From Clostridia bacterium (GTDB lineage Bacteria > Bacillota > Clostridia > Oscillospirales > CAG-272), in NCBI GenBank assembly GCA_017628875.1, contig JAGBYG010000121.1, positions 1 to 44,799 on the forward strand: DNA of 44,799 nucleotides, in the 5' to 3' direction. Numbering within the stretch: position 1 is the first letter of the stretch; every line of letters starts with the position of its first letter. The notes under the pieces are model-generated. The model saw only the letters and a list, made by a program, of their open reading frames with translations, was not told where the DNA came from and did not search any database. The position numbers were made by a program, and so were the translations under genes. Below, piece by piece: positions 1 to 28,600 of this stretch.

Positions 1-241
1 CTGCCCACAGCGCAAGAGTATACATCTCTTCACTCCAGCACATATCGTAAACGCTGATAGTGTGCTTTGCCATCATACCGGCAAGGGCCTGTTTCGGAGT
101 TTTCCCCTGCAGTGCTGCAGCTACTTTGAAATTATGCAGCCTATCATCGTCCGCGGCATATTCCTTTGCCTTGCCGCATAAAACCTTTTCACTTCTCTCG
201 TTCTGCTCTTTGAACAGTCTTTCAAATTCTTTAGCATTCAT
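1..241 (-). CDS. DUF1599 (Nmad1)-like protein, first 80 codons only; C-terminus lies beyond the left edge
   Basis: ATG at 241 with GGAG upstream and an in-frame TAA further upstream; open to position 1. Translation MNAKEFERLF..KAKEYAADDDRLHNFKVAAALQGKTPKQALAGMMAKH fits the K-x-x-Y ... D-x-L-x-NF ... KH pattern I recall for DUF1599. Confidence 0.5.
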   Translation of the reverse strand, partial: MNAKEFERLFKEQNERSEKVLCGKAKEYAADDDRLHNFKVAAALQGKTPKQALAGMMAKHTISVYDMCWSEEMYTLALWA

Positions 242-373
242 CTTCCCATCTCCATCTGTCTTGAAGGTGTCTTAACTTCCTTGATGTCGAGCACCCTTGT
301 GTCTCCGAACTTCTCGGCATACATAGCCAAGTCTTCTTTTATGCCGACGGATTTTCCGCTGGGCGCATCCACA

Positions 374-1048
374 CTAATCGTTATTATCAGCATCTATACA
401 AACCTCCTTGAAATAAGGGAGCTTTTCCATCCAATCACAAAGAGTATGCCATTCATCAAGCTTGTGATTTCTACGAGCAAAATACATCGTCTTTAGAACT
501 TGATAATTAAGCTGAACAGTTCGCTTCTGATTATAAGAAGAGGGAAGAAGCTGTATCATCTGCCACCAATAATCTTTTGCAGGAACAAGGGGATTTTCTT
601 CTTTACTTGCCGCCAAAAAACCACGCCTTGCACTATTAAGAAGTTCAATAATCCTCTTTAACCCATCTAAAAAGAAATCTTCAAGATGCTCACAGCTAAA
701 ATCTTCAATGGTAAATCTTTTTGCGTGTATCTTGTGCATTGTTGAACAAGAATTTGCAACAGTACCCACTTTATAAGTGTCAAACTCTTTCCACCAATAA
801 AGCGGAGCGGTAATGTCTAAGGTAACATTTATCATTCTTAGGAACTTGCCGTGGTCGTTTCCTGCTTTGGAAAGGTTCTTCATAAGTTTGAGGTCATTTT
901 CGCCAACCTTAAAACCATAATAAATCGGGTCGTTATCGTATCTTGGGCAATACCCGCTATCGCTTTTATCCCAACTGTTCATTGGGTTTCTCATTCCTCT
1001 TATCGCCGCTTCCCATCCAAATACTTCTGTATTTTCAATCTTTAACAT
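374..1048 (-). CDS. Divergent ThyX-like (flavin-dependent thymidylate synthase fold) protein lacking the canonical RHR..S motif
   Basis: 224-aa ORF, ATG preceded by GAGGTG. ThyX-like landmarks HGKFLRMINVTLDITAPLYWWKEF and LLPSSYNQKRTVQLNYQVLKTMYFARRNHKLDEW. The position of the ThyX RHRxxSxxxxSxR signature reads DTYKVGTVANSCSTMH. Confidence 0.75.
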   Translation of the reverse strand: MLKIENTEVFGWEAAIRGMRNPMNSWDKSDSGYCPRYDNDPIYYGFKVGENDLKLMKNLSKAGNDHGKFLRMINVTLDITAPLYWWKEFDTYKVGTVANSCSTMHKIHAKRFTIEDFSCEHLEDFFLDGLKRIIELLNSARRGFLAASKEENPLVPAKDYWWQMIQLLPSSYNQKRTVQLNYQVLKTMYFARRNHKLDEWHTLCDWMEKLPYFKEVCIDADNND

Positions 1049-1052
1049 CTCT

Positions 1053-1232
1053 TCACCTCAAATCATCCTTCATTTCTTCCATCTTCTTCAGAGCTTCAAC
1101 CGCCTCGTCAAAATAGCCCATCTTTCTTTCAAGGTTTTCTATCTCTTCCGCTTTGGCGTTTCGCTCCTGCGCGTGTGCTATGTTCAGCGCACACTTCCAT
1201 TTCTCTTTGATGAAATATTCGTAAGCGTTCAT
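1053..1232 (-). CDS. Small hypothetical protein (59 aa, below the ORF-track cutoff)
   Basis: ATG at 1232 preceded by GGTGGTGAG; fills the gap between two minus-strand genes; its stop lies 5 nt upstream of the ThyX-like start codon. MNAYEYFIKEKWKCALNIAHAQERNAKAEEIENLERKMGYFDEAVEALKKMEEMKDDLR. Confidence 0.45.
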   Translation of the reverse strand: MNAYEYFIKEKWKCALNIAHAQERNAKAEEIENLERKMGYFDEAVEALKKMEEMKDDLR

Positions 1233-1236
1233 TCTC

Positions 1237-1722
1237 TCACCACCTAAACTCAGGATGCTTTTCCATAAAGGGATTTACTATTTTTTCTATGGCAGCATCG
1301 GCAGCTTCTTCACTGCGGAAAGCAATTTCTCCAATACCACAATTGCCGCACCAATCAGCGGCGTATAACACGCCAACCTCGTTTCTTATATACCAAGCGG
1401 GGATTTCGTTGTTCAGACAATCAATTTCTCTCCCGCCGTGTTGCATTGAATATCTCCACAGCAACTGGTTGAGAATAACGTGCAATGCTCTCTGCTCCAT
1501 TAGTTCTTTGTCGGTGCAATAGTTGCCTGCAGCATAATAGTCATTGTCAAACGAAGTTAAACAATCCTCATCAGCTTCAACACATCCGTCAACGTCAATG
1601 TAAAAAAACGTCTCGCCCTCCACCCTCTCAAAAGGGTCTTTCTCTTTCTTCCCCACAAGCGTTTCTATCTGTTCCGCTGTAAGGTCTATTCTCTTGCCGT
1701 TTAGCATTAAGTAGTTTTCCAT
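1237..1722 (-). CDS. Hypothetical phage early protein (161 aa)
   Basis: ATG with GAGGAGG RBS, abuts the upstream gene stop; no family recognised. Confidence 0.6.
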   Translation of the reverse strand: MENYLMLNGKRIDLTAEQIETLVGKKEKDPFERVEGETFFYIDVDGCVEADEDCLTSFDNDYYAAGNYCTDKELMEQRALHVILNQLLWRYSMQHGGREIDCLNNEIPAWYIRNEVGVLYAADWCGNCGIGEIAFRSEEAADAAIEKIVNPFMEKHPEFRW

Positions 1723-1986
1723 TTATACCTCCTCGTAAGTCTCTGCAAAAATGTCGGGCTTGCAGGGGTAAAACTCGCCCTTAACTCCTTTTATGATGTA
1801 GTCACCCTCTATCGCCGTGTATTCGCCCTCTAAGGTTGGGATAATACAGGTACACTTTAGGCCGGGGACAATTGGAACTCTAAAGCTGTGCGCCGCATTG
1901 TTTGTGAATTCTAACACTTCACAAAAGGTGTCTCTTGTGAATAAAACAGCCTCTATTTCCACAGGCTTTTTTCTATATTTTTTCAT
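1723..1986 (-). CDS. PGDYG-domain-like small phage protein
   Basis: 87 aa; C-terminal AIEGDYIIKGVKGEFYPCKPDIFAETYEEV resembles the PGDYG motif family. Confidence 0.55.
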   Translation of the reverse strand: MKKYRKKPVEIEAVLFTRDTFCEVLEFTNNAAHSFRVPIVPGLKCTCIIPTLEGEYTAIEGDYIIKGVKGEFYPCKPDIFAETYEEV

Positions 1987-2050
1987 TTGTCGTCCCCTTT
2001 CGACCTTTTTTGCACCTTCTTTGTGCTATCCTCTCCTCGGAGGTGATAAG

Positions 2051-2194
2051 ATGCAGAATGAATATACCGTTCTCTTCAATGGCATTACAAACATCATTGC
2101 CGCTCTGAAATACTTGCAGTTTCAAGCAGAGGAGGCATATATAGAACGCCTTGAAAGAGAAGAACAAGACCGTATAGCCGGGGGTGATTTTTAA
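2051..2194 (+). CDS. Opposite-strand micro-ORF (47 aa), hypothetical
   Basis: ATG at 2051 preceded by GGAGGTGATAAG; lies in a 214-nt gap between minus-strand genes; followed by inverted repeat GGGTGAT-N5-ATCACCC. Confidence 0.3.
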   Translation: MQNEYTVLFNGITNIIAALKYLQFQAEEAYIERLEREEQDRIAGGDF

Positions 2195-2200
2195 TCACCC

Positions 2201-3343
2201 TCACCCCTCCTCGCCTTCCGCTCCGCACACAGGGTCAATATGATCGCCGAGCAAGAACTCCGGGCTAAACGGACTATTCGCCCTGTAAAATCTTTTATCA
2301 TAAAAGTCTTGCACTGAAACGCACCCCTCTTGTCTGTTTGATGTAAACAAATGATTGCACTTGCAGTCTCTTACTCCGCTTTTAAACAGCTCCTCGTCTA
2401 TTTGTTCTTTGGCATATTCTTTTCCATAAATTTTGCACATCGCCGTGTTGTTGAATCTTGTCGATTTTGCTATTAACGCATCACCACAGCAACAGTAGTT
2501 CGTGCCTATATGGTGCATGTCGTTGTCCGCCAAGCTGTAATCTATCCCATGCTTTTCAAAATACTCAACAAAAGGACGGTACATTTTAATTCGTGTTTCA
2601 GGTTTAAGGTTCAATAGTCCCATCTGAGTAAAGTCCGCTTGCGATAAATTTGTTGCCTCCAAGACTTTCTCCTTATGTTCTTTGTTTTGTGGCACCAACT
2701 TCAGCCCCTCTAAGGTAAAATTATCCGCGCCCTCAAAGGCCTTAACTATTTCCAATGTGCTAAGGTTTGGGATACACGGCTGTATGCGTATGCCAACCTT
2801 GAATCCCTCTCTCTTTAGTTCTTTAAAAAAACTAATTCTTTTTTCTATGCCGGGCACATTTGGTTCTATGTTTTTGTTGTCGCTAATGTTGCTAACAGAA
2901 AGCTGAAACGCATGCATGTCAGGCCTTATGTTCGCCCCATACACCGTGTCTGATTTTGTGCTAAACAAAATCGTTACGCCATACTGATTGCAAACGTCTA
3001 TTAGCCGTTTTGTTATTCCAAGCCTCTCTTCAACATGTTGAAACGGATCACTCATTCCTCCACAGTGCCATGTAATGCGGTCCGAAATTAACGTATCCAA
3101 AAAACTATTTTTGCTTACGTTGCCATTGTCAAATATTTTTCGCAGTCGCCGCTCAACAGACCCCACGTCACCGACCTGAAGCCCTTTGTCGAACTCGCAT
3201 ATTTTTCTGCAATTACTAAAGCAATAAAGGCATTGAAACGAGCAACTTTTATATGTGTCTACACGAATCGGCAGACCGCAAATAGCAAATTTACTACTCA
3301 CATTTAACGGTTCAAATTTTTTGATATTGAAGTTTTCTACCAT
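2201..3343 (-). CDS. Radical SAM enzyme, spore-photoproduct-lyase-like (COG1533 'DNA repair photolyase' type)
   Basis: 380 aa; CxxxCxxC cluster motif in VDTYKSCSFQCLYCFSN; downstream GGMSDPFQHVEERLGITKRLIDV..ILFSTKSD resembles the SplB-like family. Confidence 0.8.
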   Translation of the reverse strand: MVENFNIKKFEPLNVSSKFAICGLPIRVDTYKSCSFQCLYCFSNCRKICEFDKGLQVGDVGSVERRLRKIFDNGNVSKNSFLDTLISDRITWHCGGMSDPFQHVEERLGITKRLIDVCNQYGVTILFSTKSDTVYGANIRPDMHAFQLSVSNISDNKNIEPNVPGIEKRISFFKELKREGFKVGIRIQPCIPNLSTLEIVKAFEGADNFTLEGLKLVPQNKEHKEKVLEATNLSQADFTQMGLLNLKPETRIKMYRPFVEYFEKHGIDYSLADNDMHHIGTNYCCCGDALIAKSTRFNNTAMCKIYGKEYAKEQIDEELFKSGVRDCKCNHLFTSNRQEGCVSVQDFYDKRFYRANSPFSPEFLLGDHIDPVCGAEGEEG

Positions 3344-3358: not shown

Positions 3359-3886
3359 TCACTTGCAAAAATAGTGACAGCCTATCTCTCTCACACAGTT
3401 CTTCGTCAGCGGTCTTGTGGCAAAGTAAATCGCGTCGCCCACAATACCGTCGCTGTCTATTGATGCTTCTATGGCTGCATACTGCATTTCATTCGGATAT
3501 GCGCTATCTAACATCGGCACGGTGCAAAACTGACCGGGCGCGTATATAACGCCCTCTACAGTATTGGGAAAGCGTGGGTCTAATACTCTGTTGAAGATAA
3601 CCTCAACTACCGCCTGCTGTCCCTCCGCACACTCCCCTCTCGCCTCAAGATAAACAATCTTTGCGAGTAGTTTGTATTCTTCCTCAGAGATGGATATACC
3701 GCTGTATTTACTCGGTGTTTCTTCCCATACCCTCTCTCTGCTCATATCCTCAATGCGTGTTTCGTTTCTGTCCCAGCTTCGGCTTATATACGCCGCGCCT
3801 GCTTTACTGCTCAGAATTATCACGACAACAGCAAACACAAGCAGCAGAAGCATCGCCGCTATAATCTGATAACCTTTTTCTTTCAT
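3359..3886 (-). CDS. Membrane-anchored SleB/CwlJ-type cell wall hydrolase (Hydrolase_2 domain)
   Basis: 175 aa; N-terminal TM helix IIAAMLLLLVFAVVVIIL; LAKIVYLEARGECAEGQQAVVEVIFNRVLDPRFPNTVEGVIYAPGQF matches the SleB-type signature. Confidence 0.8.
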   Translation of the reverse strand: MKEKGYQIIAAMLLLLVFAVVVIILSSKAGAAYISRSWDRNETRIEDMSRERVWEETPSKYSGISISEEEYKLLAKIVYLEARGECAEGQQAVVEVIFNRVLDPRFPNTVEGVIYAPGQFCTVPMLDSAYPNEMQYAAIEASIDSDGIVGDAIYFATRPLTKNCVREIGCHYFCK

Positions 3887-4710: not shown

Positions 4711-5124
4711 CTAATTTTTGGCCTTAAAGTCTCGAAACCACATCATCAGCTCATCGTTGTCGGCGTTTTCGGCAGGCGGATCAACGTTGCACATTTCAGC
4801 AATCAAAAAGCAATATCTTGCAACTTCTTCGCTTCTCTGCTTACCGGCAATCAATCCCTGCTTTTGCTGCTTCACCCTTGCATATATCTGTCCAAGCTGC
4901 GGTGCAAACTCTCCACCTTCGGCGGAAATTTCCATAATTGCCTGAGTAACATCTTCGCTTTTTGCTTTTCCGAAAAACTTAAGCCAAGTGTTCACCAGTG
5001 CGTTTATTTCCATTTCCGTTCCCGGTGTCCTATAGTTCGACCAAAGCTGACTCATCAGGTATATACAGCCCTTCACATCTGCTTGTGTCATACATATCCC
5101 TCTTAATGCTCTCAAGTAAGGCAT
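4711..5124 (-). CDS. G39P-like replicative helicase loader/inhibitor (start uncertain: 5124, 5091 or 5055)
   Basis: WSNYRTPGTEMEINALVNTWLKFFGKAKSEDVTQAIMEISAEGGEFAPQLGQIYARVK resembles the 'loader and inhibitor of G40P' family; sits downstream of the replisome organizer. Confidence 0.55.
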   Translation of the reverse strand: MPYLRALRGICMTQADVKGCIYLMSQLWSNYRTPGTEMEINALVNTWLKFFGKAKSEDVTQAIMEISAEGGEFAPQLGQIYARVKQQKQGLIAGKQRSEEVARYCFLIAEMCNVDPPAENADNDELMMWFRDFKAKN

Positions 5125-5722
5125 CGTTTCTGCCTCGTTTGGGAGTGTTTCCGTTTCTGCCTTCCCATGAGATAACCTTCTGTTTCCAAGATTTCACCTT
5201 TTGGCCTTTACTGTCGACCCAATTGTTAGCCTCGAAGTAGTCAAAGAACCGTTTGGGATCAACCTCATTGCCCCTTTCTCGGCAATAATCGGCAATTTCA
5301 GCGAGCGTGGGTGGCGTGAAACGCTTATTATTACTCTCCTTTGCCTTTTCCTTATCCTTTGCCTTTTCCTTATCCTTTGCCTTTTCCTTTGCCTTTTCCT
5401 TTTCCTTGGCATCGTTGGCATCTTTTTGAATGCCATCGCATGCGTTCGCATCTTTCGCTATGCGTTCGCATCCGTTTGCATCCCATCTTTTATTGGCATT
5501 AAGGCTGCTCTTGTGGCATTTGGCCTCGTATTTTGCTACATCCCTATCTATCTGCCCCTTCATGGTCGGGAAGACAAACCTTTCATTACCGCGAAGGTCC
5601 GGGGTTACGCCCGTGCTGCTGTATTCAAGCAGTGCCGTGAATAACCGCCCTCTCTCTGCGTCATTTAAAGGCTCTATCGACTCTAAGTAGCTGTGATAGG
5701 CATTAAAGTATTCAAGTGCCAT
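5030..5722 (-). CDS. Phage replisome organizer (DnaD-like N-terminal region plus conserved phage C-terminus Phg_2220_C-like)
   Basis: 230 aa; ATG with GGTGAGG RBS; LNDAERGRLFTALLEYSSTG..QIDRDVAKYEAKC and FTPPTLAEIADYCRERGNEVDPKRFFDYFEANNWVDSKGQKVKSWKQKVISWE; central KEKAK low-complexity linker. Confidence 0.75.
   Translation of the reverse strand: MALEYFNAYHSYLESIEPLNDAERGRLFTALLEYSSTGVTPDLRGNERFVFPTMKGQIDRDVAKYEAKCHKSSLNANKRWDANGCERIAKDANACDGIQKDANDAKEKEKAKEKAKDKEKAKDKEKAKESNNKRFTPPTLAEIADYCRERGNEVDPKRFFDYFEANNWVDSKGQKVKSWKQKVISWEGRNGNTPKRGRNDALLESIKRDMYDTSRCEGLYIPDESALVEL
5338..5485. repeat. Tandem and iterated repeats inside the organizer gene (candidate replication origin)
   Basis: CCTTTGCCTTTTCCTTAT at 5338-5355 and 5356-5373 plus partial copies to ~5408; ATGCGTTCGCATC at 5440-5452 and 5460-5472; several GCATC copies 5409-5485. 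Confidence 0.4.
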
Positions 5723-6137: not shown

Positions 6138-6825
6138 TGTTTTTCTCCTTTGTCTTTAATCTGTATAATCTCGCTATTGTCTTATCTACCTCTATGCCGT
6201 CAGATAAATGCCATTTCTCGTTGAATGTCTTCTGACCTATTGTGTGAGCCTCTGTGTGGTGGTCTCTGCACAGCGGCTGTACCTTCATGCCCTCGTGTAC
6301 TATCTCCGTTCTGTCCCTTCCCATGCCAACGTGGTCCGCGTGGTGAAGGTCTGCTTTCTTTCCGCATATGCAGCATTTCTTGTTCACAAGGCAGCTGTAT
6401 ATGTAGTCTTGAATATCGTCTACAAAATCAAGCAGGGGGAATGGACAGGGTATGTCGTACTCGAGTATCATTCGCACGAGAAACCTCTGAAACGCACATA
6501 CAAGGCTCATCGGCGCATTAGATAAACTGAATATTCTGTCAGCCGTTTCGCCGAGATCATCAGCGAGGAACTTTATCTTCATGTATTCCTTCATCAAGCC
6601 TCTGTCCTCGCCGGTCTCGTCTGCTATTGCTCTTATGAGCGCATAACAGGCTTTGCGCTGCTTGTCAGATATTTGGCGGCTGTCATTTAACTGAACTTGG
6701 CAAGTCTTGTATCCTCTCTTGGTGAGAGTGAAGTAGTCATCGTATTTTGCTCTGATAAGAAGTTCTCCGCGCCTCTCGTCATAACCAACGATTACGCCCT
6801 TAACTTCATCTATTGGCGTTTTCAC
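6130..6825 (-). CDS. Putative HNHc-type nuclease
   Basis: 231 aa, GTG start; CCICGKKADLHHADHVGMGRDRTEIVHEGMKVQPLCRDHHTEAH resembles the phage 'putative HNHc nuclease' family found next to SSB/annealase genes. Confidence 0.7.
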   Translation of the reverse strand: MKTPIDEVKGVIVGYDERRGELLIRAKYDDYFTLTKRGYKTCQVQLNDSRQISDKQRKACYALIRAIADETGEDRGLMKEYMKIKFLADDLGETADRIFSLSNAPMSLVCAFQRFLVRMILEYDIPCPFPLLDFVDDIQDYIYSCLVNKKCCICGKKADLHHADHVGMGRDRTEIVHEGMKVQPLCRDHHTEAHTIGQKTFNEKWHLSDGIEVDKTIARLYRLKTKEKNNA

Positions 6826-7465
6826 TGTTTATCTTCCTTATGCAATCAAGGCAAAGAACTCTGCCGAACATCTTCTCGCTCTTGTCTGCGTGTGCTCTGA
6901 TCGGAATAGGCTTGCCGTTGGAGTCGGGAATAGGCTCTAATGTCTTGCCGCAATCAGCGCAAGTGAACTTTAAGCTCTTGCCCGGAATGCCATCACCAAC
7001 AGGCTTAACAATCGTTGAGGGTTCGCTTACGCAAGCATCAAAAATCTTCTCTGCTTTCTTGTCAGGTGTGTTCTCCTCTTCGGGAAGGTCTTCACCTGCG
7101 TAGATGTAAAGGCCGAGGCCGTGTCTTGCCACAGCTTTTGTAAGGCTTCTCTGAATGGCTTTGTTTACATCGAAGCTTGTTACCTTGTCTACAGGAATGC
7201 TCTTGTTCTTGTAGTCCATAACCGGCAGATACTCGATATGCTCAATGCCGTTTACGGTAACGCCTGTTTTAACCCAACAAGTAGAGCCGTCTGTGTGATA
7301 AAAGAGGCCCGATGCATTTTCGTAAATAGTGTATGTTGCATCAGGATGAAGCTTCTTAACTTCGCCCCAAGCCCACGCCCAAGACAGATATGTAAGTCCG
7401 TTCTTTTTCTCGGTCTTGCCGTTTACGTTGATGTTGTTTAATGTGCTGAAATAGTTTTCCATCAT
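6806..7465 (-). CDS. Rad52-like single-strand annealing protein (Sak/DUF1071 type) with C-terminal Zn ribbon
   Basis: LTYLSWAWAWGEVKKLHPDATY..YLPVMDYKNKSI..AIQRSLTKAVARHGLGLYIYAGEDLP; C-terminal CADCG..CLDC. Confidence 0.8.
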   Translation of the reverse strand: MMENYFSTLNNINVNGKTEKKNGLTYLSWAWAWGEVKKLHPDATYTIYENASGLFYHTDGSTCWVKTGVTVNGIEHIEYLPVMDYKNKSIPVDKVTSFDVNKAIQRSLTKAVARHGLGLYIYAGEDLPEEENTPDKKAEKIFDACVSEPSTIVKPVGDGIPGKSLKFTCADCGKTLEPIPDSNGKPIPIRAHADKSEKMFGRVLCLDCIRKINSENANR

Positions 7466-15445: not shown

Positions 15446-15691
15446 TTAAGGATAGTTTTCTTCGTCCGTAGGTTTGACTTTGGTCATAATATCGCTGCCG
15501 AAAATCTGCCTTAGAGCGATAATGAAAAGTTCACCGCCCCAAAAGCCTAATAGTCCGGCTAACACGTTTCCGGGAATAACGGTGTCAAGTCTGTGGTATT
15601 CCCACAATATAGCCGCTGTGATAATAATGCTTACCGCTACACAGAAAACGATAATAGCATTGGCAAATTTTATCTTGCTCAGTTTCTTCAT
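15446..15691 (-). CDS. Two-TM membrane protein of the lysis cassette (second holin/antiholin-like)
   Basis: 81 aa; ATGA overlap with the endolysin stop; TM segments AIIVFCVAVSIIITAAILW and VLAGLLGFWGGELFIIAL. Confidence 0.55.
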   Translation of the reverse strand: MKKLSKIKFANAIIVFCVAVSIIITAAILWEYHRLDTVIPGNVLAGLLGFWGGELFIIALRQIFGSDIMTKVKPTDEENYP

Positions 15692-16335
15692 TTTGCCATC
15701 ATTCTCTTGTTGATAATAACGGTCTTGATATCTGACAGGAACATATTGATATCTTCACTGTCGATAACCTTGTCTGTGCCGCCGTTGATAATGCCGCTGT
15801 CGAGAAGTTCTCGCATATCTGCCTTTGCCCATTCGGGAAGGTCGGAGAATCTCTCGATGTACTTGTCACCAAGTTCAGCTAAGATTTCATCTCTTGTCAT
15901 GTAGTCATCTCCTAAAGGACGCATAAGGGTTTTAATTAAGCTTTTGCTTCTGATACGTCGATAAACACCGCCGCCGTTGTCCTGACTTCCACCATTGCCG
16001 GGTGAAGTGTTTCCCTCTATAGTGGTAACAGTTCCATTGCCGTTATCCTTTTCAATAATGGCAGTATGTCCGCTTCCGATATTAAAATATACGATATCGT
16101 TCGGCTTCGGGTCTTTCACTACCTTGTCAGGCTCGTTGTTTTTGTAATAGTTCGCCAAAGCAGAGGAAGAAGCTGTTTTGAAAGGCAGCTCGTGTCCTGC
16201 CATAGCAAACCAATACTGAACGCACTGTACGCACCACGCTACGCCATTCCATCCGTACCACTCGCCATACTTGGTTTTGTTTACGGGTGTTTCGGTGTAG
16301 CCGATGTCCTGACGGGCAAAGTCGAGGGGAGTCAT
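15688..16335 (-). CDS. Endolysin, CHAP / NlpC-P60-type peptidoglycan hydrolase with an unassigned C-terminal domain
   Basis: 215 aa; NGVAWCVQCVQYWF (catalytic Cys context), GSGHTAIIE, TIEGNTS; ATGA overlap with the holin. Confidence 0.85.
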   Translation of the reverse strand: MTPLDFARQDIGYTETPVNKTKYGEWYGWNGVAWCVQCVQYWFAMAGHELPFKTASSSALANYYKNNEPDKVVKDPKPNDIVYFNIGSGHTAIIEKDNGNGTVTTIEGNTSPGNGGSQDNGGGVYRRIRSKSLIKTLMRPLGDDYMTRDEILAELGDKYIERFSDLPEWAKADMRELLDSGIINGGTDKVIDSEDINMFLSDIKTVIINKRMMAK

Positions 16336-19494: not shown

Positions 19495-22221
19495 TCACTC
19501 CTGTACCCTAACGATAATGGGAATGTTTATACTCGGCGCATCTCCCACGCATTTCGCTGTAAGACTGTTTGCTCCTGTAGTCGCTACGGAGATTAAACCA
19601 AACGCAGCTATGAGTTCTGCATCTGCCGCCGCATCTGTGCCGCTGAGGACAACATCGAAGTCGGGGCTTACATCGTAACTCGCTTTCAGACCGCTAATAG
19701 TAATGGTCTGAGATTTATAGCCGCTTGAGTCTGCCCAACTTGTAGAGGAGAGCGTTCCTGTATACTGTGTCCAGCTACCCGCAGGACCAGCAGGACCTGT
19801 TGCGCCGTCACTACCCTTACTGCCGTTCTTTACCGTGAATGTACTTGTAGTATTATCGGTCTTTGTAACTGTGATAACATTGCTACCGCCGTCTGCATTG
19901 GAAGTGGTGGTCTGTGTAACGCTCTTGATGCCTACACCGTCAGAGCCGCTTGAGCCTGTATCGCCCTTGTCGCCCTTTAGATTTGCAGAGCTTGTACCGC
20001 TTGCTGATGTGACATTAAGTGTTGTACCACTCCAAGAATGTGTTACGGATGTACCGTCTTTGCCGTCTTTACCCGCAGGGCCTGTACCGCCATCCTGACC
20101 GGCAGGGCCTCTAAGATCAGCAGATGTTGTACCACTTGCTGATGTAACAGAAAGAGTAGTACCGTTCCAAGAATGGGTTACGGAAGTACCGTCTTTGCCT
20201 GCAGCACCGTCGCTACCTTTGCTGCCGTTTTTAACCTTGAATGTACTTGTAGTGTTATCGGTTTTAGTGACGGTGATTACGTTTTCGCCACCATCAGCAG
20301 AGCTTGTCGTGGTCTGTGTGACGCTCTTGATACCTACACCGTCATTACCGGCAGGGCCTGTATCACCGTCCTGCCCAGCAGGGCCTCTCAAATCAGCAGA
20401 AGATGTGCCACTTGCAGATGTAACAGAAAGAACGCTGCCGTTCCAGCTGTGCCTTGCACTTACGCCGTCGTCACCTTTCGGGCCGGTTTCACCCGTGCTA
20501 CCCCTACTGCCGTTCTTTACTTTAAAGGTGCTTGTGGTGTTGTCTGTTTTAGTTACGGTGATTACGTTTTCGCCACCGTCAGAATTGCTTGTTGTGGTCT
20601 GCACAACACTCTTAATGCCCACGCCGTCGTTGCCCGGAACACCCTGACCGCCGGTATCGCCTTTCTGTCCCTGACTTCCTCGGCTGCCATTCTTTACGGA
20701 GAATGTGCTTGTTGTTCCGTCAGTTTTGGTTACGGTGATAACGTTTGTGCCGCCGTCTTCTGCGCTTGTAGTAGTCTGAACCACGCTCTGAACGCCTACG
20801 CCGTCTTCGCCGTCTTTACCCGCAGCTCCGTCTTTACCCGCAGGACCGACAAGGTTAGCTGAAGATGTTCCGCTCGCAGACGTAATGTTAAGTGTTGTTC
20901 CGCTCCAACTGTGGGTAACGCTAATGCCGTCCTGTCCAGCAGGGCCTGTGTCGCCTTTTGCGCCCTGAAGCGGGCCGTTGTTTACCCAGCCGCTTGTCTT
21001 ACCGTAAATGTAAATGTCGTAGGGTTCTGCCGCGCCAACGCCGTATGCGTCGCCCTCGGAGGGGTTTGGAACTGCGCTCTGTAAAGCAGAGAGAGAAGCG
21101 TAATAGTCAAGAACTTTAAAGCCTGATCCGGTGTCACCTTTAAGGTCAGCGGAAGAAGTGCCGCTTGCGGAACTTATTGTCAGCTTTGTGCCGTCCCATT
21201 TGTGGGTTACGCTCACGCCGTCCTGACCGTCGTTGCCTGCCGGACCGGTGCTGCCCTTGCTGCCGTTTTTAACAGTAAAGGTGCTTGTGCCGCCGTCAGT
21301 TTTGGTGACGGTAATTACATTAGAGCCGCCGTCCTCTGTGGAGGTAACGGTCTGTGTAACGCTCTGAATGCCCACGCCGTCGCTGCCGTCTTTGCCGTCT
21401 TCACCGTCGCTGCCTCGGCTGCCGTTTTTTACAGTGAATGTACTCTTAGTGTTATCTGTCTTGGTCACAGTAATAACGTTACTGCCGCCGTCAGCGTTGC
21501 TCGTCTGAGTCTGAACTACGCTCTGAATTCCTACGCCGTCACTGCCGTCCTTGCCGTCGCTACCATCGCTGCCTCGGCTGCCGTTCTTAACTGTAAACGT
21601 GCTTTTAGTGCCGTCGGTTTTTGTTACGGTAATAATGTTTGTGCCGCCGTCTGTAGTGCCGGTCTGAGTCTGAACTACACTCTGAATTCCAACGCCATCC
21701 TTGCCCGCAGCACCGTCGAAATAGTCTTTGCCCTTTACAGGTGTATAACCATCCTTACCCGCTGCGCCGTCCTGACCGTCCTTGCCTGCAGGACCTACAA
21801 GGTCTGCGGAAGATGTGCCGCTTGCCGAAGTGACGGTAAGTCGTGTGCCGCTCCAAGAATGGGTCACGCTTGTACCGTCTTTGCCATCACGACCCGGCTG
21901 GCCCTGCGGACCTTCAGGACCTACAGCCGCCTTAACTTCAAAGTCAAAGGTCTGTCCGTCAGATAAGGTGATAGTGTAGGTTGTATATTCTCCGCTTTGA
22001 GACGTCTGTTCGATGCTTGTAATCGTTGCGCCCTGATCGCCCTTAACTCTGCCCAAGTCAATCTTCTGACCGTCGGTCATTGTTACGATAAGGTTGCCAT
22101 CTCCGTTTATCTCAAAGCCACTTGCCCCTCTGCCGATATAGCCCTGCAGCGTAGCAGTAATCTGAGGAGACAATCTTTCACCAATATCAGGAGTAATCTG
22201 AGGAGTAAGTTTAATGTCCAT
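19495..22221 (-). CDS. Collagen-like, modular repeat fibre protein (908 aa from ATG 22221)
   Basis: ATG at 22221 preceded by GAGGTGGAG (the ORF-track start at 22242 is TTG). G-X-Y runs (GPEGPQGQPGRDGKDG etc.) separate 6 copies of a (T/V/I)SVTHSWSGTxLxVTSASGTSSA module and 7 copies of a VGI(Q/K)SV(V/T)QT.T...DGG.NVITVTKTD.T.STF.VKNGS module. Confidence 0.85.
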   Translation of the reverse strand: MDIKLTPQITPDIGERLSPQITATLQGYIGRGASGFEINGDGNLIVTMTDGQKIDLGRVKGDQGATITSIEQTSQSGEYTTYTITLSDGQTFDFEVKAAVGPEGPQGQPGRDGKDGTSVTHSWSGTRLTVTSASGTSSADLVGPAGKDGQDGAAGKDGYTPVKGKDYFDGAAGKDGVGIQSVVQTQTGTTDGGTNIITVTKTDGTKSTFTVKNGSRGSDGSDGKDGSDGVGIQSVVQTQTSNADGGSNVITVTKTDNTKSTFTVKNGSRGSDGEDGKDGSDGVGIQSVTQTVTSTEDGGSNVITVTKTDGGTSTFTVKNGSKGSTGPAGNDGQDGVSVTHKWDGTKLTISSASGTSSADLKGDTGSGFKVLDYYASLSALQSAVPNPSEGDAYGVGAAEPYDIYIYGKTSGWVNNGPLQGAKGDTGPAGQDGISVTHSWSGTTLNITSASGTSSANLVGPAGKDGAAGKDGEDGVGVQSVVQTTTSAEDGGTNVITVTKTDGTTSTFSVKNGSRGSQGQKGDTGGQGVPGNDGVGIKSVVQTTTSNSDGGENVITVTKTDNTTSTFKVKNGSRGSTGETGPKGDDGVSARHSWNGSVLSVTSASGTSSADLRGPAGQDGDTGPAGNDGVGIKSVTQTTTSSADGGENVITVTKTDNTTSTFKVKNGSKGSDGAAGKDGTSVTHSWNGTTLSVTSASGTTSADLRGPAGQDGGTGPAGKDGKDGTSVTHSWSGTTLNVTSASGTSSANLKGDKGDTGSSGSDGVGIKSVTQTTTSNADGGSNVITVTKTDNTTSTFTVKNGSKGSDGATGPAGPAGSWTQYTGTLSSTSWADSSGYKSQTITISGLKASYDVSPDFDVVLSGTDAAADAELIAAFGLISVATTGANSLTAKCVGDAPSINIPIIVRVQE
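19777..21920. repeat. In-frame tandem coding repeats of the fibre gene
   Basis: Two interleaved imperfect repeat units with GXY linkers; these explain the long Cys/Ala-rich antisense ORFs in the track. Confidence 0.85.
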
Positions 22222-22231
22222 TAGCTCCACC

Positions 22232-22573
22232 TCATTCCACAATCATAATGTTGTCTTCGGCAATACTTGTTTTGTATTCGCCGTAGTAGTTTACATCGTA
22301 TCTGTATTTACCCTTTTTAAAGAGCTTAGTAACTTCCTCGTCACAAGCAAATGTAACGCCTGCAGCAGCGTAATGCTTTTCGGAATAAACATCCTCTTTG
22401 CGCTCGTTGCGGATAATAATTTCAAAAGCAGTTTCGTCTGTCGGTTCAACGATACCGCCGTCCTGATCTCTCAGATCTATTGCGAGATTTAATTCAAAAG
22501 TGTCTCCCTCGTACCAGTAAACGATACCGTTCTCAATTCTCGGAGACATCTTAGCTCTTGGAATTTCAGCCAT
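22232..22573 (-). CDS. Small beta-rich virion protein (113 aa)
   Basis: ATG with AAGGGGGAG RBS; first gene after the terminator that follows the giant ORF. Confidence 0.55.
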   Translation of the reverse strand: MAEIPRAKMSPRIENGIVYWYEGDTFELNLAIDLRDQDGGIVEPTDETAFEIIIRNERKEDVYSEKHYAAAGVTFACDEEVTKLFKKGKYRYDVNYYGEYKTSIAEDNIMIVE

Positions 22574-22607
22574 ATATAGCTCCCCCTTTCATTTATAGTG
22601 CGAGCAT

Positions 22608-22641
22608 AGCAAAAGCGCAGGGATGTTTTCTATCCCTGCGC
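22608..22641 (-). terminator. Rho-independent terminator after the giant ORF
   Basis: GCGCAGGGAT-N7-ATCCCTGCGC (22615-22641) followed on the minus strand by TTTTG. Confidence 0.65.
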
Positions 22642-22648
22642 CCTTGTC

Positions 22649-25600
22649 TTAATGCCACGGAGCGTCGTCTATAGTGCTTTCCGAGTAGTCAAGCAGGTAA
22701 AGGACATCTTTCTGATCTCTCGAAATATTCAGAGAATTTATGATATCCATGACCGCTTCCTTTTTAGAGCCGCTGTCTGTCTTGCCGTCGCCATCAGCAT
22801 CTGTGCCTTTGGCTTCCTTTTTCCTTACATAGTAATCTTTGTAGACATCAAACTCTATGCCTGTGGATTCTATCTCCTCGTAATACTTGGTGATAGCAGT
22901 AGAGGACATTTCCTCGCTTGCAAGGTTGAGTGCGTAGTTCTTAATGCTTTCAGCCTTGTCGGAAGTCTTCTCAACCTCCTGCGCCCATTTGGGAACTTCG
23001 TGAGTTTCCTTGACATCTCTCTTCGCCGTCTCTGCAGCATAGTCATAAGCCTTTTTGATAACCTCAGATTTCTCCGTGTCATCAAGTTTGTCGTACCAAT
23101 CGGCAGAGGTGATATCCTCGATGAGCTCTCTCTGTCTCTTGCCTCTTGTCTCGGCATACTTGACATACTCGTCCGCGCTGAGATACTCGCCGTCGATTTT
23201 ATCGCTCTGACTTACGCTGCTGGGGAACACTTCGTCAAAACCAAGGTCATAAAGTCTCTGCAGCTCATTGTCTGTAGGAGTGGAAACATCTTCGGATACA
23301 TAAGCCGGATTGAGCATATTGTTGAACACTCTCGCAAGCACAGTGCCGGTGCTTTCTCTTCTGCCCCATGCATCGATGTAAGGTATCTGCTGATATTCGC
23401 CCGGAGTCTTGTTTGCGCTCTTGCCGAGTAAATACTGAATGTCTCTCTCAATCTGAGTCTTGTTTCTATCGACCCAAGTTGTCTCTCGCTCGGTTTCAGT
23501 AACTCTTTCAATCTGTCCTGCAAGAGTAGGAAGTCCCTGAGAGAGGTAACTTGTAAAGGCATTAACGAGAATACCCATCAACTTGCCGTCAGAATAGCTT
23601 ACATTTTCGATGACATCCTGAAGACTTGAAAGCATACTCATTTCGAGCATGGGTTCGCTAATTCTGCTCACGCCCTCTAAAACTGCAGCAAGGTTAAACT
23701 CGCCGTCGTTTTCGATAAGCACGTTTGCAATCTCCGCACCCACGAACATGGGGAGAGCTTCGGGGGCAAGCCAATCAATAGTGAAGTTCTTGTCACCGAC
23801 GGTCAGCGCATAGTTCTGTCCGCCCATCAGCTCGTCAAATTCCTGCTGCTTCTTGTCCTTGTCCTCACCTGCAGAGAGAACACCCTGCTTAACGAGGAAA
23901 ATACCAAGTCCTAAGAGAGCAGATCCAACGAGGCCCGATGCAATAGAGTCGATTGCTTCTGCTGCTGTGGCTGTACCCTTCTTCACGCCGCGTGCGGCCT
24001 GAACAATGCCCTTTGCAAGTCCTACAGGAGAATACTCTATACCACGAACTAAAATGTTCGCAGGTGTTCTTCTGAAGGGCAGAACGCCTTCTGCAACGGT
24101 CTGTGCAGCGGCGACCACCTTGTTCTTCGCCTTGCTCTTTCTGCCAATAGCGGAAATAAAATTGGAGAAGTCGTTGAAGTCTCTGTATGTTGCTTTCTGT
24201 GCTTCCTTGATAGCATATGCTCTCGCCTTATCCAGCTCGCTCTGCTGCATTGTGGACATATCTGTAATGTTTCTTGCTTTGAGATATCCGGCAAGCGCAG
24301 AAGCGTAAGCAGGTCTGCTGAACCACATGTCTTCCGCCTCGAGTGCGAAGCTATTTGCATTAGCAAGCCAGTTGAAAGGCTTTGCAATCTTGGAAGAGCC
24401 GAATGCGGGTTTCATTCTTTCGATTTCGCCTATAGCATCATTGTACTTGCCTGCGCCGGTAATCTGATCCGCAACGATCTTATAATCTTCAAAAGCCGCC
24501 TTATAAAGTTTAGAGCCGCTTGCGATGGCCTTTGTTCGCTGCTCCTGCGGAATGAGCTTTTCGATGAGTGCAGCCGTTGCGTTCTTTGCACCTCTGACGG
24601 GAGCAAACATTGCGTTACCGAGAATGTTTCTGACATGGGTTCTCGGATTGAACAGCATTGCAAGATATCTCCAAGAGTTCCACTTATCCATAAAGGTGTG
24701 GGGAATCTGTGCAGCAACATGTCTGTAGATAGCTTCCTGAGCAGCAGTTCTTGCCTCTTCGGTCTCTGCCTGTTCGTAGTTCTTAACAAGCTGACTATCC
24801 ATTTCGAGCTGCGGAGCTTTGTCTCCATATCTCTCGTTGAGGCTATCCTGCAGCGTCTGAATGCTTCTCTGAATGCCGTAAAGCTGATATTCGGGAGAAA
24901 GCTTCTTGAGCATTCTTACAGCCTGTACCATCTGTGCGCCCTCTCTTACTCTTGCGGCAAGATCGGTCAGAATGCGTACCGCTGTTTCGGTATCGCCTGC
25001 GTTCAGAGCGTTGTTGTAAAGCTGGAAGCCAAGAGCCACATTGTTCTTGCCAAGCTGGTTCTTGTTCACATCGGCTGCCCAATCGAGAAGAGCATCATTC
25101 CAGCCCTTTCTCTTGATGGTATCGTCAGCATACTTCTTAGACTCAGCATCAGTAATGGGAATATAGCTGAAGCCGCCTTTCACCACTTCTTCGGTGAGTC
25201 TTTCAACCATTTCGTCGGAAGTAGCTTCTGCCTCCATAGCGGTTCTAACGGTCTGAGAAACCTTGTTGCCCTTGTTTGTTCTCGCAGGAACGGAAACCTC
25301 TCTGAAGGGCTTTTCGCCGGGTTCAATAGAGCCGTACTTCTGAACGAGAAGCTCGGTGGCTTTACTCGCAACAGCCTTAACGCCCTTTTTGTCAAGAGAC
25401 TCATAAAGTTCGGAGTACATCTTAACGGTGCGGGCTTCAGCGTTGTGCATTCTGTTTCTGTCTTCAACGCTGATGTTGTCACCCTGCTCGCGGTATTTAG
25501 CGATAGCTTCTTCCGTTTCTCTGATTTTCTTTAAGCGTTCAGTAAAGCGATCGAGAACAGCCTTTTCGCTTGCGTTGAACACGGACATATCAAGTGCATT

Positions 25601-28600
25601 TACTGCGTTACTCAATACTGTCGAGTCCGTTCTTTTTCTTTCGTGTTCTTTGCGAAGCTTTTCAATTCCCGGAATTTCGCGAGAGAATCTGATATCAGGA
25701 TTGCTTGTAGGATTTTTGTTATCTACGTTCTTTGCCTGCTCAGAGTTAAAAATAACGGTCTCTGTGTCTAAAATGAAGCCGTCATAGTTAGTGCTGTTAA
25801 CCTTGTTGAAAAGCTCAACAGCCTCAACCATATCTCCGATAGCTGTCTGAGCAACGTCATAAAGCATAGCGAAGTCGCTTTTGCCGCTATACACATCGCG
25901 CAGCACACCATCTACTGTTGCTTCATATCCGTAGTTTTCAAAACTGTAGTCGTCTTCGTTTCCTGCCACAGCCTTTAAGAACTTACGCATCTGCGCCCTT
26001 GTAATGGTAGTTTCGCTTGTAGAGACAGGGTTCGTAATGTTGAGATAAAAAGCCTTTGCTTTTCCGTACTGTTCGGCGTGATTCTTGCTGTTTGTGAAGT
26101 AGAATCCTCTTCCATACAGATTGGAGTATTTAGACTTTCTGCGGTCGAACACGGTAAAGTCCTCGTTTCCGCCTCTGTACATCACGCGGAGATAGCCTTT
26201 GTTGTCGCGCTCTTTTGAATCTTTGAAATACTCCTGCTGTCCCTTGCTCAACTTTTCGCCGTCGCTGTCGGTTGTAAGTTCACGGGAGAAGTGGAACTGA
26301 GAAACGAGAGACTGTCCACGAAGCTCACCTGTCGAGTAATAGTGCTTTACGTCATTAACAATACGTGTGGCGTTTATACTGTTTTCATAAGTTAATGAAC
26401 CAACACTTCTTCCGTTTTCGTCGGAAAAGTCAATGCTAAAGAAACCTTCTTTTGCATACTCGTTGATAAACTTTCTGATTGTGGAATACTGCTCAGAAGT
26501 AGGCTCGGCTTTTGCAAAAATGTCTAAACCGGGAGTCTCAGCCATAACGCGGATGTTGCCGTCATTCATAAAACGAATTAAGGCCGCTGTCCCCTGCGTA
26601 TTTGCATAGATAACACCGATTCCTCTGTGGTCTTCTCCACGCATTCCATAGTGCTTACCTTTTTCGCCACTGAAGTTTAAAAGTTTGCCATTAGGAAGCA
26701 AGTACCCTGCATCGTAAAAATACGGAGTATATCCAAATTCTTTAACCGCCTGTTTTCTGAAGTAGTCCGCTTCGTCTAAACCGCTTTTAGCAATAGCCTC
26801 TTTTTCTTCGTCATCTCTTATCTTGTTATAGAGTTCGTTATAACGTTTATGAAGCTCGTTAAGTTCAGTAGATAAAGTTTTTGACTTTTCGATTATTGCT
26901 GTTAAACCGTTTTTGTTCACCCAATCGCTATACTCTTTGATTGAATCAGGGGACGGTTCCTTAGATACTCTATCAAAGAGCTCTTTGTATTCGTCAGAGT
27001 TTTCGATGTCGTATCTTTCTGCGGATAGTCTCTGCTGCTCTTTGCGCTTATCTTGAATTTCTTCTAAAAGGCCTTCGCGCTCTTTGTGAAGATCTATCTC
27101 TCGACTTGCCTTGCCCTTGACAGAACTTCCATTATGTGCTATTTTGACCTCAGAAGAAGTTTTACCACGCTGAGCGCCGCCGTTGGCGGAAGAGCCGCTA
27201 AGTGCTTTTTGCACAGTGGGAAAGCTTCTTTTTTTCATTTCGCCGATATTATATACTGCATTCCCATTTTTCCCTTTACTTACAGAAATAGTGCATCGAT
27301 AATATGTACCGTCGAAATCCAAAAAGAATGCCGTGCGATAATTCCAACCATCTTTAGCGGTTTCTCCGTGTCTTGCTTCTACATCTTTAACATCTTTTTT
27401 GCCTCTTGTAGAGACCATCGCCAACTCGTCTATATGTGCACCGGCACTAACTTTGCGCTCAAAGTCTCCGTCGCTTATGCGGCCACCATCTTTATAGGGC
27501 GAAGATATTTTTCCGGCGGTATCTTCGGTAAGTGTTAGCAGATCTCCGTCAACGGCGATAAGCGTTACGTTTTCGCCTTTGCGTATTTTGTTGTTTATAT
27601 AGGTTTCAAGCTGTTCGCTCCAGCTGTCAGGGTCGTTTCCGAAAATTACCTGTCGGTCTGCGCGGACATATTTTTTTCCATCAGGTAGAACTTCTACGCT
27701 TGTTTTGCTGTTTGCAGGCGGTCCTCTTGTACTTTCAGCTTTAGTCTTGCCGATTGCTTCCTTAATTGCGGGCTGCAAAACTTTTTCGCTCTGCTCGTAG
27801 TCAGTTTTAGAAAATACGTTCATGTCCGCAAGGCTGTCGCAGATGAGCTCCGTCCAAATCTCTTCAGGACTCATGCCTGACCCTTCGTAAGCTTCGATGT
27901 ATTTGTCCACAATAGCGTCAGCGCGGGCTTTGGTAAACTCCTTGTCGATTCTCTCTCGAACAACATTGGGGTTAATTTCTCCCTTGTCAATCATATCGTG
28001 ACCGATTTCATGCTTAACAAGCTGTTCGGAAGTAAAATCAGGATGGTCTACTCGTGCATAAACTTTGTTGCCAACAATAAAAGCTCTGGCGTTTATGTCA
28101 TAAGTTTTGCCGTCTTCGCCCTTTTGAGATATCTGAAGATTGTCTCCGGCAAACAGCACAAGCTCAAGTCCTCTGGATTTCGCTTGAGCCTTCGCATTTT
28201 TAATAGCTTTAGTTTCGCCGCTCTTAACAATGCGAATGTGTGCGTTTTTAGAACCACCTTCGATACCGAGAGAGGCTTCGCTTACTTTTTCGCTATAAGT
28301 GAGCGAAGCTGTTTCGCTGTCTGCGGGTCTGCTTTTCTCGAGCCCGCTCTGATTTCGTCCTGCGCTTTCTTCCAGCTGTCGTATCTGTCCGCCGGTATTC
28401 TCACCATCAAGCCCGTTGCTGACTTCGCGTAAATGAACTTTTTCTCCATTATTTTCCTCCATGTTATAACTCTGAGCGTCTTCTGATTCAACGTTATTCT
28501 TGCCCTGTTCTTTGAGTCTTGCAATAACACCTGCGTCATAAGCGTTCTCTAACTGAGCGTCGCTCATATGTGGAGTGTGACGTTTCTGCATCACATACTC

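Follow-up and report, generated by a model that had tools for sequence, protein, structure and literature searches.

Published work and annotation pipelines alike define ThyX (Thy1, PF02511; TM0449, PDB 1O26) by an RHR...S motif. The RHR residues, together with the equivalent of R165, hold the phosphates and ribityl of flavin adenine dinucleotide (FAD), while deoxyuridine monophosphate (dUMP) is held by R78, R174, S88, R90, and one further Arg, with a Tyr acting as a lid (PMC6514825). The only neofunctionalised ThyX paralogue mentioned in a 2018 review (PMC5954106) is PolB, a UMP/dUMP C5-methylase of polyoxin biosynthesis that is derived from ThyX, has an altered role, and provides a precedent for substrate change. 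Described here is a ThyX homologue without the defining motif, a protein of 224 amino acids (aa) encoded near the left end of a 44,799-nucleotide (nt) stretch of Clostridia bacterium DNA (GenBank assembly GCA_017628875.1, contig JAGBYG010000121.1, positions 1 to 44,799), referred to below as the window.

PolB can still be recognised as ThyX, with the motif intact. It resides in a Streptomyces antibiotic cluster, whereas the family of the 224-aa protein (hereafter ThyX-like) is far more divergent and phage-borne. ThyA and the phage hydroxymethylases (T4 gp42, SPO1 gp29) offer a functional analogy only, namely one-carbon transfer to C5 in a phage nucleotide module; their fold and chemistry are unrelated to those of the ThyX-like protein, and there is no sequence relationship. 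With ThyX itself, the ThyX-like protein shares the fold, a length of ~220 aa, and an N-terminal R..R..S pattern, and at the family level it shares genomic partners (DUF1599, MazG, HD, and dUTPase) and the slot beside them. It differs in carrying one extra residue in the substrate loop and in falling below the Pfam Thy1 threshold.

Fold and Homology to ThyX

The two features on which the argument centres are the following.

374..1048, minus strand: 224-aa ThyX-like protein, an open reading frame (ORF) assigned by phrog_6721 (E = 6.5e-82), Foldseek, and hhalign
734..781, minus strand: signature codons, residues 90-105, DTYKVGTVANSCSTMH, which replace ThyX F-RHR-IAS-YNEL-S-G-R-Y

The 224-aa protein has no Pfam match at E ≤ 1 and no NCBIfam match, and searches of PDB sequences, either with the protein alone or with a profile of its close homologues, returned nothing. 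Its family in PHROGs, phrog_6721, is labelled "unknown function". Comparison of an AlphaFold2 (AF2) model (predicted local distance difference test score, pLDDT, 78.6) against the PDB using Foldseek returned ThyX for all of the top 50 matches (E 3e-5 to 9e-5, probability 1.0, ~230 aligned columns, template modelling (TM) scores 0.39-0.50); against BFVD, uncharacterised gut-phage proteins came first, followed by viral ThyX. Among 81 family representatives sharing 45-66% identity, Thy1 was the commonest weak Pfam match (12/81, best E 9.6e-5). The best-scoring relative, gp68 of Clostridium phage phiCTP1, which is 40% identical to the 224-aa protein, aligned to Thy1 (PF02511) over profile positions 39-185 of 191 with a score of 23.8 bits (E = 4.5e-5; gathering cutoff 24.8 bits). 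An earlier hhalign run that compared close members only with a Thermotoga-like ThyX was weak (P = 0.015, probability 3%); a family alignment including the distant branch (A3) gave a probability of 71% and E = 3.7e-5 over 171 columns when compared with 15 ThyX sequences (A5). The alignment to TM0449 is collinear and spans the full length. The 224-aa protein is a ThyX homologue with the ThyX (Thy1) fold, and the divergent ThyX fold that an earlier note had read from this ORF was borne out. By sequence, its relatives appear to constitute a very large sister family of ThyX.

Active-Site Replacement

Mapping of active-site residues rests on profile alignments, with about one position of uncertainty inside the substrate loop, and used a TM0449 reference sequence identical to that of 1KQ4. 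The ThyX pattern RHR...S..R.Y becomes TYK...S..M.H in the ThyX-like protein, and the remaining positions compare as follows (TM0449 to window protein).

Kept: R25 to R17, R28 to R20, S30 to S25, H53 to H66, P69 to P82, S88 to S102
Also kept: P151 to P169, N163 to N181, R174 to R192, H178 to H195, E182 to E199
Conservatively changed: R74 to K87, R80 to K93, S83 to T96
Lost: E58 to R71, R78 to T91, H79 to Y92, R90 to M104, Y91 to H105
Also lost: E144 to W162, R147 to I165, R165 to Q183 (Glu in most members)

R147, one of the lost positions, likewise binds dUMP in TM0449. The earlier note had stated that every Arg and His of the motif was replaced; on alignment this is upheld for RHR and R90 (now TYK and M), and Y91 becomes H, but the exchange of R80 for K93 is conservative and the Ser is retained. 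The kept H66, like H53 of ThyX, lies 24 residues before the motif and is present in 70 of the 81 representatives.

The replacement signature is itself near-invariant across 34 close homologues and the 81 representatives, with Y92 in 80/81 of the latter, K or R at position 93 in 77/81, S102 in 80/81, M104 in 78/81, and H105 in 77/81; outside the motif, K68 (79/81) and R71 (80/81) are equally constant. K68, R71, D90, T91, S100, T103, M104, H105, and K196 make up an invariant set specific to the family. Such constancy of the replacement residues argues for a working pocket rather than decay, and with the canonical motif missing, the site cannot be filed as that of a textbook ThyX. A distant branch of the family reads DRYHH in phiCD211, ERYRF in XP41-N3, QRYHF in Fnu1, and DTHR in the protein P0167, and with these RY[RH] or THR motifs it bridges RHR and TYK.

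Family Size, Carriers, and Inserts

The ThyX-like family comprises more than 8000 clusters at 90% identity; each of the 8000 candidates that were scored proved significant. When 50%-identity representatives were searched exhaustively, 4127 matched at E ≤ 1e-3, of which 931 reached E ≤ 1e-30, and no Pfam domain was found among the 120 family matches listed. Among cultured phages, the gene is carried by those infecting Clostridium, Enterocloster, C. difficile, Fusobacterium, and Desulfovibrio, including phiCTP1, PMBT24 with its relatives CB457/CB473, phiCD211, and Fnu1, and in each the gene is annotated as hypothetical. Matches in bacterial genomes fall in prophage-like loci of Clostridia and Treponema and in some metagenome-assembled genomes of Bacteroidales and Succinivibrionaceae from gut and rumen. 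So far, the family is confined to phages and prophages of anaerobes, and it is common in those of human and animal gut anaerobes, with thousands of variants.

Neither a name nor a description of the family was found in Pfam (2025 copy), NCBIfam 20, PHROGs v4, BFVD/UniProt names, or the source annotations, and searches of the literature available retrieved no described ThyX-like family lacking RHR. This motif-less sister family of ThyX is invisible to Pfam and NCBIfam and of "unknown function" in PHROGs.

Several members (P0169, P0236, P0243, P0216, P0237, P0255, and P0263) contain an in-frame insert of ~140-215 aa that splits the domain in two (residues ~120-150). NUMOD4, HNH_3, and HTH domains were confirmed in the inserts of P0169, P0236, and P0243; the insert of P0263 had no Pfam match. 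By their domain content, these inserts resemble a homing endonuclease that has settled within the gene. Homing-endonuclease inserts are typical of conserved enzyme genes, and ThyX, too, is a target of such insertion. The C-terminal extensions of longer members are mostly unrelated to one another and without Pfam match, with one informative exception: P0167 is an in-frame fusion of a ThyX-like protein to DUF1599 (PF07659, E = 6e-9).

Genomic Context and Displacement of Canonical ThyX

Context was compared across 80 viral loci from IMG/VR (±8 kb flank) and 80 genomic loci from GTDB, each centred on a ThyX-like gene. ORFs in the loci were called by a crude procedure, and the hidden Markov models (HMMs) came from local clusters; for the viral loci, neighbours were clustered and the cluster representatives checked against Pfam. 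MazG lies near the ThyX-like gene in 41 of the 80 viral loci (28 within 1.5 kb), followed by NrdD (28/80), NrdG (25/80), DUF3310 (18/80), dUTPase (12/80), and true DUF1599 (PF07659, above cutoff; 10/80, 8 within 1.5 kb). At least one of these six is present in 66 of the 80. Together with the P0167 fusion, the eight close DUF1599 neighbours substantiate, at the family level, the link to DUF1599 (Nmad1) that the earlier note had proposed.

The relationship was also examined in reverse, using 80 viral loci centred on true DUF1599 (L261-L340) that were retrieved by an alignment-based scan; a scan of viral contigs with the DUF1599 tail of P0167 as a single sequence found nothing. Canonical ThyX is present in 57 of these loci (54 within 1.5 kb) and a ThyX-like gene in 10 (8 within 1.5 kb), and no locus has both (0/80). 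Canonical ThyX is likewise absent from all 160 ThyX-like loci. The DUF1599 proteins concerned are ~73% identical to each other, with one lineage pairing with ThyX (55/61 loci) and another with the ThyX-like gene (9/15 loci). Gene order makes the exchange visible: L276 and L300 read YqaJ...DUF1599-MazG-HD-ThyX (Thy1 E = 4.5e-46), and L332 reads YqaJ...DUF1599-MazG-ThyX-like. ThyX has been displaced in situ by the ThyX-like gene in the DUF1599-MazG(-HD) slot, where the two are mutually exclusive. Since they share a slot and never occur in the same locus, the ThyX-like gene is read as a stand-in for ThyX. A dUTPase-ThyX-DUF1599 block has been described in Asgard viruses and phages (bioRxiv 10.1101/2021.07.29.453957). 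MazG was observed within 1.5 kb of DUF1599 in 67 of the 80 DUF1599-centred loci, often with an HD-domain gene between them. The pattern suggests that DUF1599, MazG, HD, and ThyX form a conserved four-gene thymidylate module of phages.

Among cultured carriers, the virulent 100-kb Enterocloster phage PMBT24 (OQ326496.2; loci L002, L344, and L345) encodes NrdD/NrdG, dUTPase, a deoxynucleoside monophosphate kinase, and the DNA polymerase III alpha subunit. No ThyA or ThyX was found in PMBT24 positions 346-99962; the ThyX-like gene (6313-7035; product WDQ45565), two genes from the kinase, is the sole gene of the thymidylate-synthase superfamily. The published description of this phage mentions no thymidylate synthase (PMC11035940).

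A different setting is provided by two loci, L079 (5603-10872; IMGVR_UViG_3300045988_164467) and L127 (5936-10793), in which the ThyX-like gene is part of a compact cassette. The order is a thymidylate-kinase-like gene, a ThyA homologue (PF00303), dUTPase, the ThyX-like gene, a 546-aa carbamoyltransferase (PF02543 + PF16861), and deoxycytidine monophosphate (dCMP) deaminase. These are the 2 of the 160 loci in which a ThyA homologue and a ThyX-like gene occur together. In its "GLPYD" stretch, the ThyA homologue has Asp at the position of Asn177 of E. coli ThyA, a substitution we take to be the signature of a dCMP hydroxymethylase. By gene content, the cassette looks like a cytosine hypermodification pathway, possibly leading to carbamoylated 5-hydroxymethylcytosine; across the 160 loci, only these two place the ThyX-like gene in a set of the hypermodification type. 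In T4, a separate thymidylate synthase exists beside the dCMP hydroxymethylase, and the parallel is a hint that the ThyX-like gene of L079 and L127 might fill the corresponding place.

Proposed Function and Competing Explanations

Having lost ThyX arginines yet holding ThyX's place in gut-phage genomes, the ThyX-like protein probably still serves DNA-precursor synthesis of the thymidylate type. The reading that we favour, with moderate confidence, is of an active enzyme of pyrimidine deoxynucleotide metabolism that would stand in for ThyX. It would most likely move a one-carbon unit to C5 of dUMP, giving deoxythymidine monophosphate (dTMP) or a close variant, with other residues binding phosphate and cofactor. 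Cofactor and phosphate binding would have been rebuilt, for which K68, R71, K87, K93, and K106 are candidates. The earlier note had deemed a standard thymidylate synthase improbable. That view is sustained insofar as the canonical motif is missing, but the genomic context favours a role of the thymidylate-supply type over a special modification.

Several observations weigh against this reading. The 224-aa protein itself does not match Thy1, its AF2 model is of only moderate confidence, and the TM-scores do not exceed 0.5. The contacts to the phosphates and ribityl of FAD (RHR and the R165 equivalent) are replaced, as are, by T. maritima equivalents, three of the five dUMP contacts (R78 and R90 gone, R74 a Lys). 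Judged by what is known of ThyX, such replacements ought to abolish activity, so catalysis would need compensating residues, for which the candidates named above are guesses. Neighbours from nucleotide metabolism are scarcer in the genomic set (25/80 loci, 31%), and gene scans of the window found no MazG, dUTPase, Nrd, or true DUF1599. The distant members are flanked by recombination genes (Erf, Gam, and the single-stranded DNA-binding protein SSB), which also fits a DNA-directed role. Finally, the sets of loci are dominated by a few phage lineages, the DUF1599-centred set by two (61 and 15 loci), so their counts do not represent independent events.

If dTMP is the product, a motif held to be indispensable for flavin and substrate binding would prove dispensable, which bears on the ThyX mechanism and on inhibitor design, and thymidylate synthesis would be under-called in gut phage genomes such as that of PMBT24. 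Any other product would open a new entry point into the modification of phage DNA precursors. A less probable reading is a new type of enzyme on the ThyX scaffold that would have given up the arginines for the FAD pyrophosphate and the dUMP phosphate and would therefore use another cofactor form, substrate, or product (5-hydroxymethyl-dUMP, a dCMP derivative, or a DNA base); it would mean that thousands of gut phages of anaerobes possess a previously unseen route of pyrimidine C5 chemistry.

More specifically, and somewhat less probably, the scaffold may have been re-purposed in phages with a modified base, to make a non-thymine precursor (5-hydroxymethyl-dUMP or a C5-modified dCMP) or to act on a nucleoside or DNA base, substrates that lack a free 5'-phosphate. 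The pattern of loss would suit such a change, in that the arginines for the dUMP and FAD phosphates are gone while R174, H178, and S88 on the base side are kept. PolB, the only known neofunctionalised ThyX paralogue, changed its substrate (PMC5954106), and in L079 and L127 the gene sits inside the apparent cytosine hypermodification cassette. MazG, HD, dUTPase, dCMP deaminase, and kinase-type neighbours are also helper types of base-replacement phages; however, DUF1599, MazG, and HD flank canonical ThyX in sister phages as well, so these helpers do not signal an unusual base. Moreover, carriers are mostly ordinary temperate phages and prophages. The window has an integrase, no transferase for further modification was recognised in it, and its scans did not find a co-located set of hydroxymethylase, kinase, and group-transfer genes, i.e., a base-hypermodification cassette. 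PMBT24 was sequenced using standard Illumina library preparation, and nothing unusual was reported about its DNA (PMC11035940).

A comparably unlikely alternative to the favoured stand-in for ThyX is a non-catalytic protein that binds nucleotides or DNA on a ThyX fold and acts early in infection in a regulatory, sequestering, or anti-defence capacity. The protein has lost half of the contacts that ThyX makes with its ligands, conserved Lys and Arg residues are numerous, distant members lie beside recombination and replication genes, and neither the window nor the closest relative has neighbours from nucleotide metabolism. Nevertheless, the near-invariant S100, S102, T103, H105, H66, N181, H195, and E199 occupy ThyX-pocket positions and look like an active site, and a binding protein would account poorly for mutual exclusion with ThyX beside DUF1599-MazG, for the fusion to DUF1599 in P0167, or for the in-frame homing-endonuclease inserts. 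For the specific case of an anti-defence sponge, no positive evidence was found, and no PADLOC scan was made.

The earlier note had favoured a single DNA-base modification or repair module made up of the ThyX-like gene, a DUF1599-like gene, and a radical S-adenosylmethionine (SAM) gene of the spore photoproduct lyase (SPL) type, a proposal that now appears highly improbable. In its favour, a single strand carries all three genes within 3.3 kb, no terminator-like site separates them, and the ThyX-like family is elsewhere associated with true DUF1599. However, a radical SAM homologue is present in 1/80 viral and 0/80 genomic ThyX-like loci, and a homologue of the downstream gene likewise in 1/80 (3.8 kb away) and 0/80, so that each co-occurs in 1 of 160. 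Conversely, no ThyX-like gene was found in 16 loci of the downstream family or in 19 loci of the radical SAM family. The neighbours of a 75%-identical ThyX-like homologue on a 47-kb contig are entirely different, and DUF1599 could not be detected in the downstream gene. The trio does not form a conserved module, and its members are neighbours by accident of mosaicism, the ThyX-like gene being one of several independently shuffled accessory genes in the window. Least credible of all is a decaying ThyX pseudo-enzyme without function, which would explain the loss of the signature motif but neither the thousands of intact full-length variants nor a replacement motif that is near-invariant at 45-66% overall identity.

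Neighbouring Genes in the Window

The minus strand carries every gene at the left end of the window. Transcription would proceed from a SleB-type hydrolase through the radical SAM gene, ORFs of 87, 161, and 59 aa, and the ThyX-like gene to a 51-aa ORF and a truncated ORF. The features flanking the ThyX-like gene are, from the window end inward:

2..241, minus strand: four-helix protein of phrog_6802, first 80 codons of ~110 aa, cut by the window end
238..393, minus strand: 51-aa ORF between the ThyX-like and four-helix genes, overlapping by 20 nt at one end and by ATGA at the other
1053..1232, minus strand: 59-aa ORF, chance-level family matches only
1237..1722, minus strand: 161-aa ORF, no match in Pfam, PHROGs, or NCBIfam
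1723..1986, minus strand: 87-aa protein of a widespread phage family (phrog_419, E = 2e-33; phrog_4159, "nucleotide pyrophosphohydrolase", E = 8e-8)
2201..3343, minus strand: 380-aa radical-SAM-type protein, CxxxCxxC at residues 34-41 (nt 3221-3244)
3359..3886, minus strand: SleB-type cell-wall hydrolase (PF07486) with an N-terminal hydrophobic helix

The gene that the earlier note had placed immediately downstream as DUF1599-like is separated from the ThyX-like gene by the 51-aa ORF, which has a homologue in locus L148 (E = 1.5e-16), and it does not detectably match DUF1599. The downstream family (phrog_6802) is small, comprising 374 clusters of proteins ~100-115 aa long; the full-length homologues examined have 98-139 aa. 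Neither the 80-aa fragment nor five full-length homologues gave a DUF1599 match in Pfam at E ≤ 10, and no Pfam domain was found among 120 listed homologues. With hhalign, the family aligned collinearly with DUF1599 at P = 0.07-0.1 and with MazG at P = 0.14. An AF2 model (pLDDT 82.9) has four helices; Foldseek against the PDB found nothing significant (best E = 1.5), and the MazG-type structures 2p06, 1y6x, 2yxh, 2oie, and 7mu5 were among the top matches, all at E > 1. The protein resembles DUF1599/Nmad1 and MazG-type pyrophosphohydrolases in being a small four-helix protein of about the same size and in motif order (K-x-x-[DE]-Y near helix 1 and E-x-x-x-D-x-x-N-Y in the last helix), and its gene occupies the position where relatives carry MazG or DUF1599. 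Unlike either, the family has its own invariant block, RLHNF...QALAGMMAKH, and unlike DUF1599 it is unlinked to the ThyX-like family and to ThyX. Pfam, local HMMs, hhalign, and AF2 with Foldseek gave no significant support for assignment to DUF1599 or MazG. With no significant profile or fold match, "DUF1599-like" is therefore an unproven resemblance. Positions 38-163 (minus strand) of the window, within this gene, share 72-74% DNA identity with genes annotated "hypothetical protein" in the Arthrobacter phages Tribby, Correa, and Cheesy, so that actinophages, too, carry members of this family.

On the minus strand, 1152 nt separate the end of the radical SAM gene from the start of the ThyX-like gene downstream of it, and no terminator-like site was found on this strand between the two. 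The 380-aa radical SAM product carries C34-x3-C38-x2-C41 (CSFQCLYC), a motif kept as CSHGCKYC in a homologue. These points agree with the earlier note, which had called the gene SPL-like and placed it ~1.1 kb upstream; the label itself finds only weak NCBIfam matches, to PA0069 (46.9 bits, cutoff 360), Rv2578c (27.1 bits, cutoff 430), and mobile-pair-B. The protein has no Pfam Radical_SAM match at E ≤ 1, where only DUF1848 appeared (E = 0.002), and no match in a PDB sequence search; it does match phrog_13321. By these scores, it is distantly related to the PA0069 and Rv2578c families without being a member of either. The 19 viral loci of its own family have no conserved neighbours, and no ThyX-like gene, MazG, or DUF1599 is found beside it there; it is an accessory gene independent of the ThyX-like family.

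The domain of the 87-aa protein occurs fused to a MazG-like pyrophosphohydrolase in some phages. Its ORF, especially positions 1727-1806, has 74-86% DNA identity over ~80-120 nt to genes found in phages of Gordonia, Streptococcus, Enterococcus, and Bacillus, and in at least one of them, Gordonia phage DatBoi, the counterpart is annotated as a MazG-like pyrophosphohydrolase. The SleB-type hydrolase gene (3359-3886) adjoins the radical SAM gene in the early region, far from the CHAP lysin gene at 15688-16335; the early region of PMBT24 also has a "spore cortex-lytic enzyme" gene (L345, 19635-20081).

Beyond these genes, the window holds a temperate siphovirus-like genome with a tyrosine integrase, a Sak-type annealase, SSB, a RusA resolvase, a small terminase subunit, the CHAP lysin, and a metallophosphoesterase (PF00149) described in PHROGs as "DNA repair exonuclease". 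The ThyX-like gene and its neighbours therefore lie at the end of the early (replication) region, immediately ahead of packaging. As the earlier note had also remarked, no DNA methyltransferase was recognised among the window ORFs scanned, the scan not being exhaustive. A primosomal-like protein (5030-5722, minus strand; phrog_15768 and phrog_6451) contains the low-complexity run KEKAKEKAKDKEKAKDKEKAKE. Positions 19495-30442 (minus strand) hold a 2597-aa ORF (22649-30442) followed by a 915-aa ORF, presumably tail genes, and the G+C content of the window rises locally to 0.535 at 20-22 kb.

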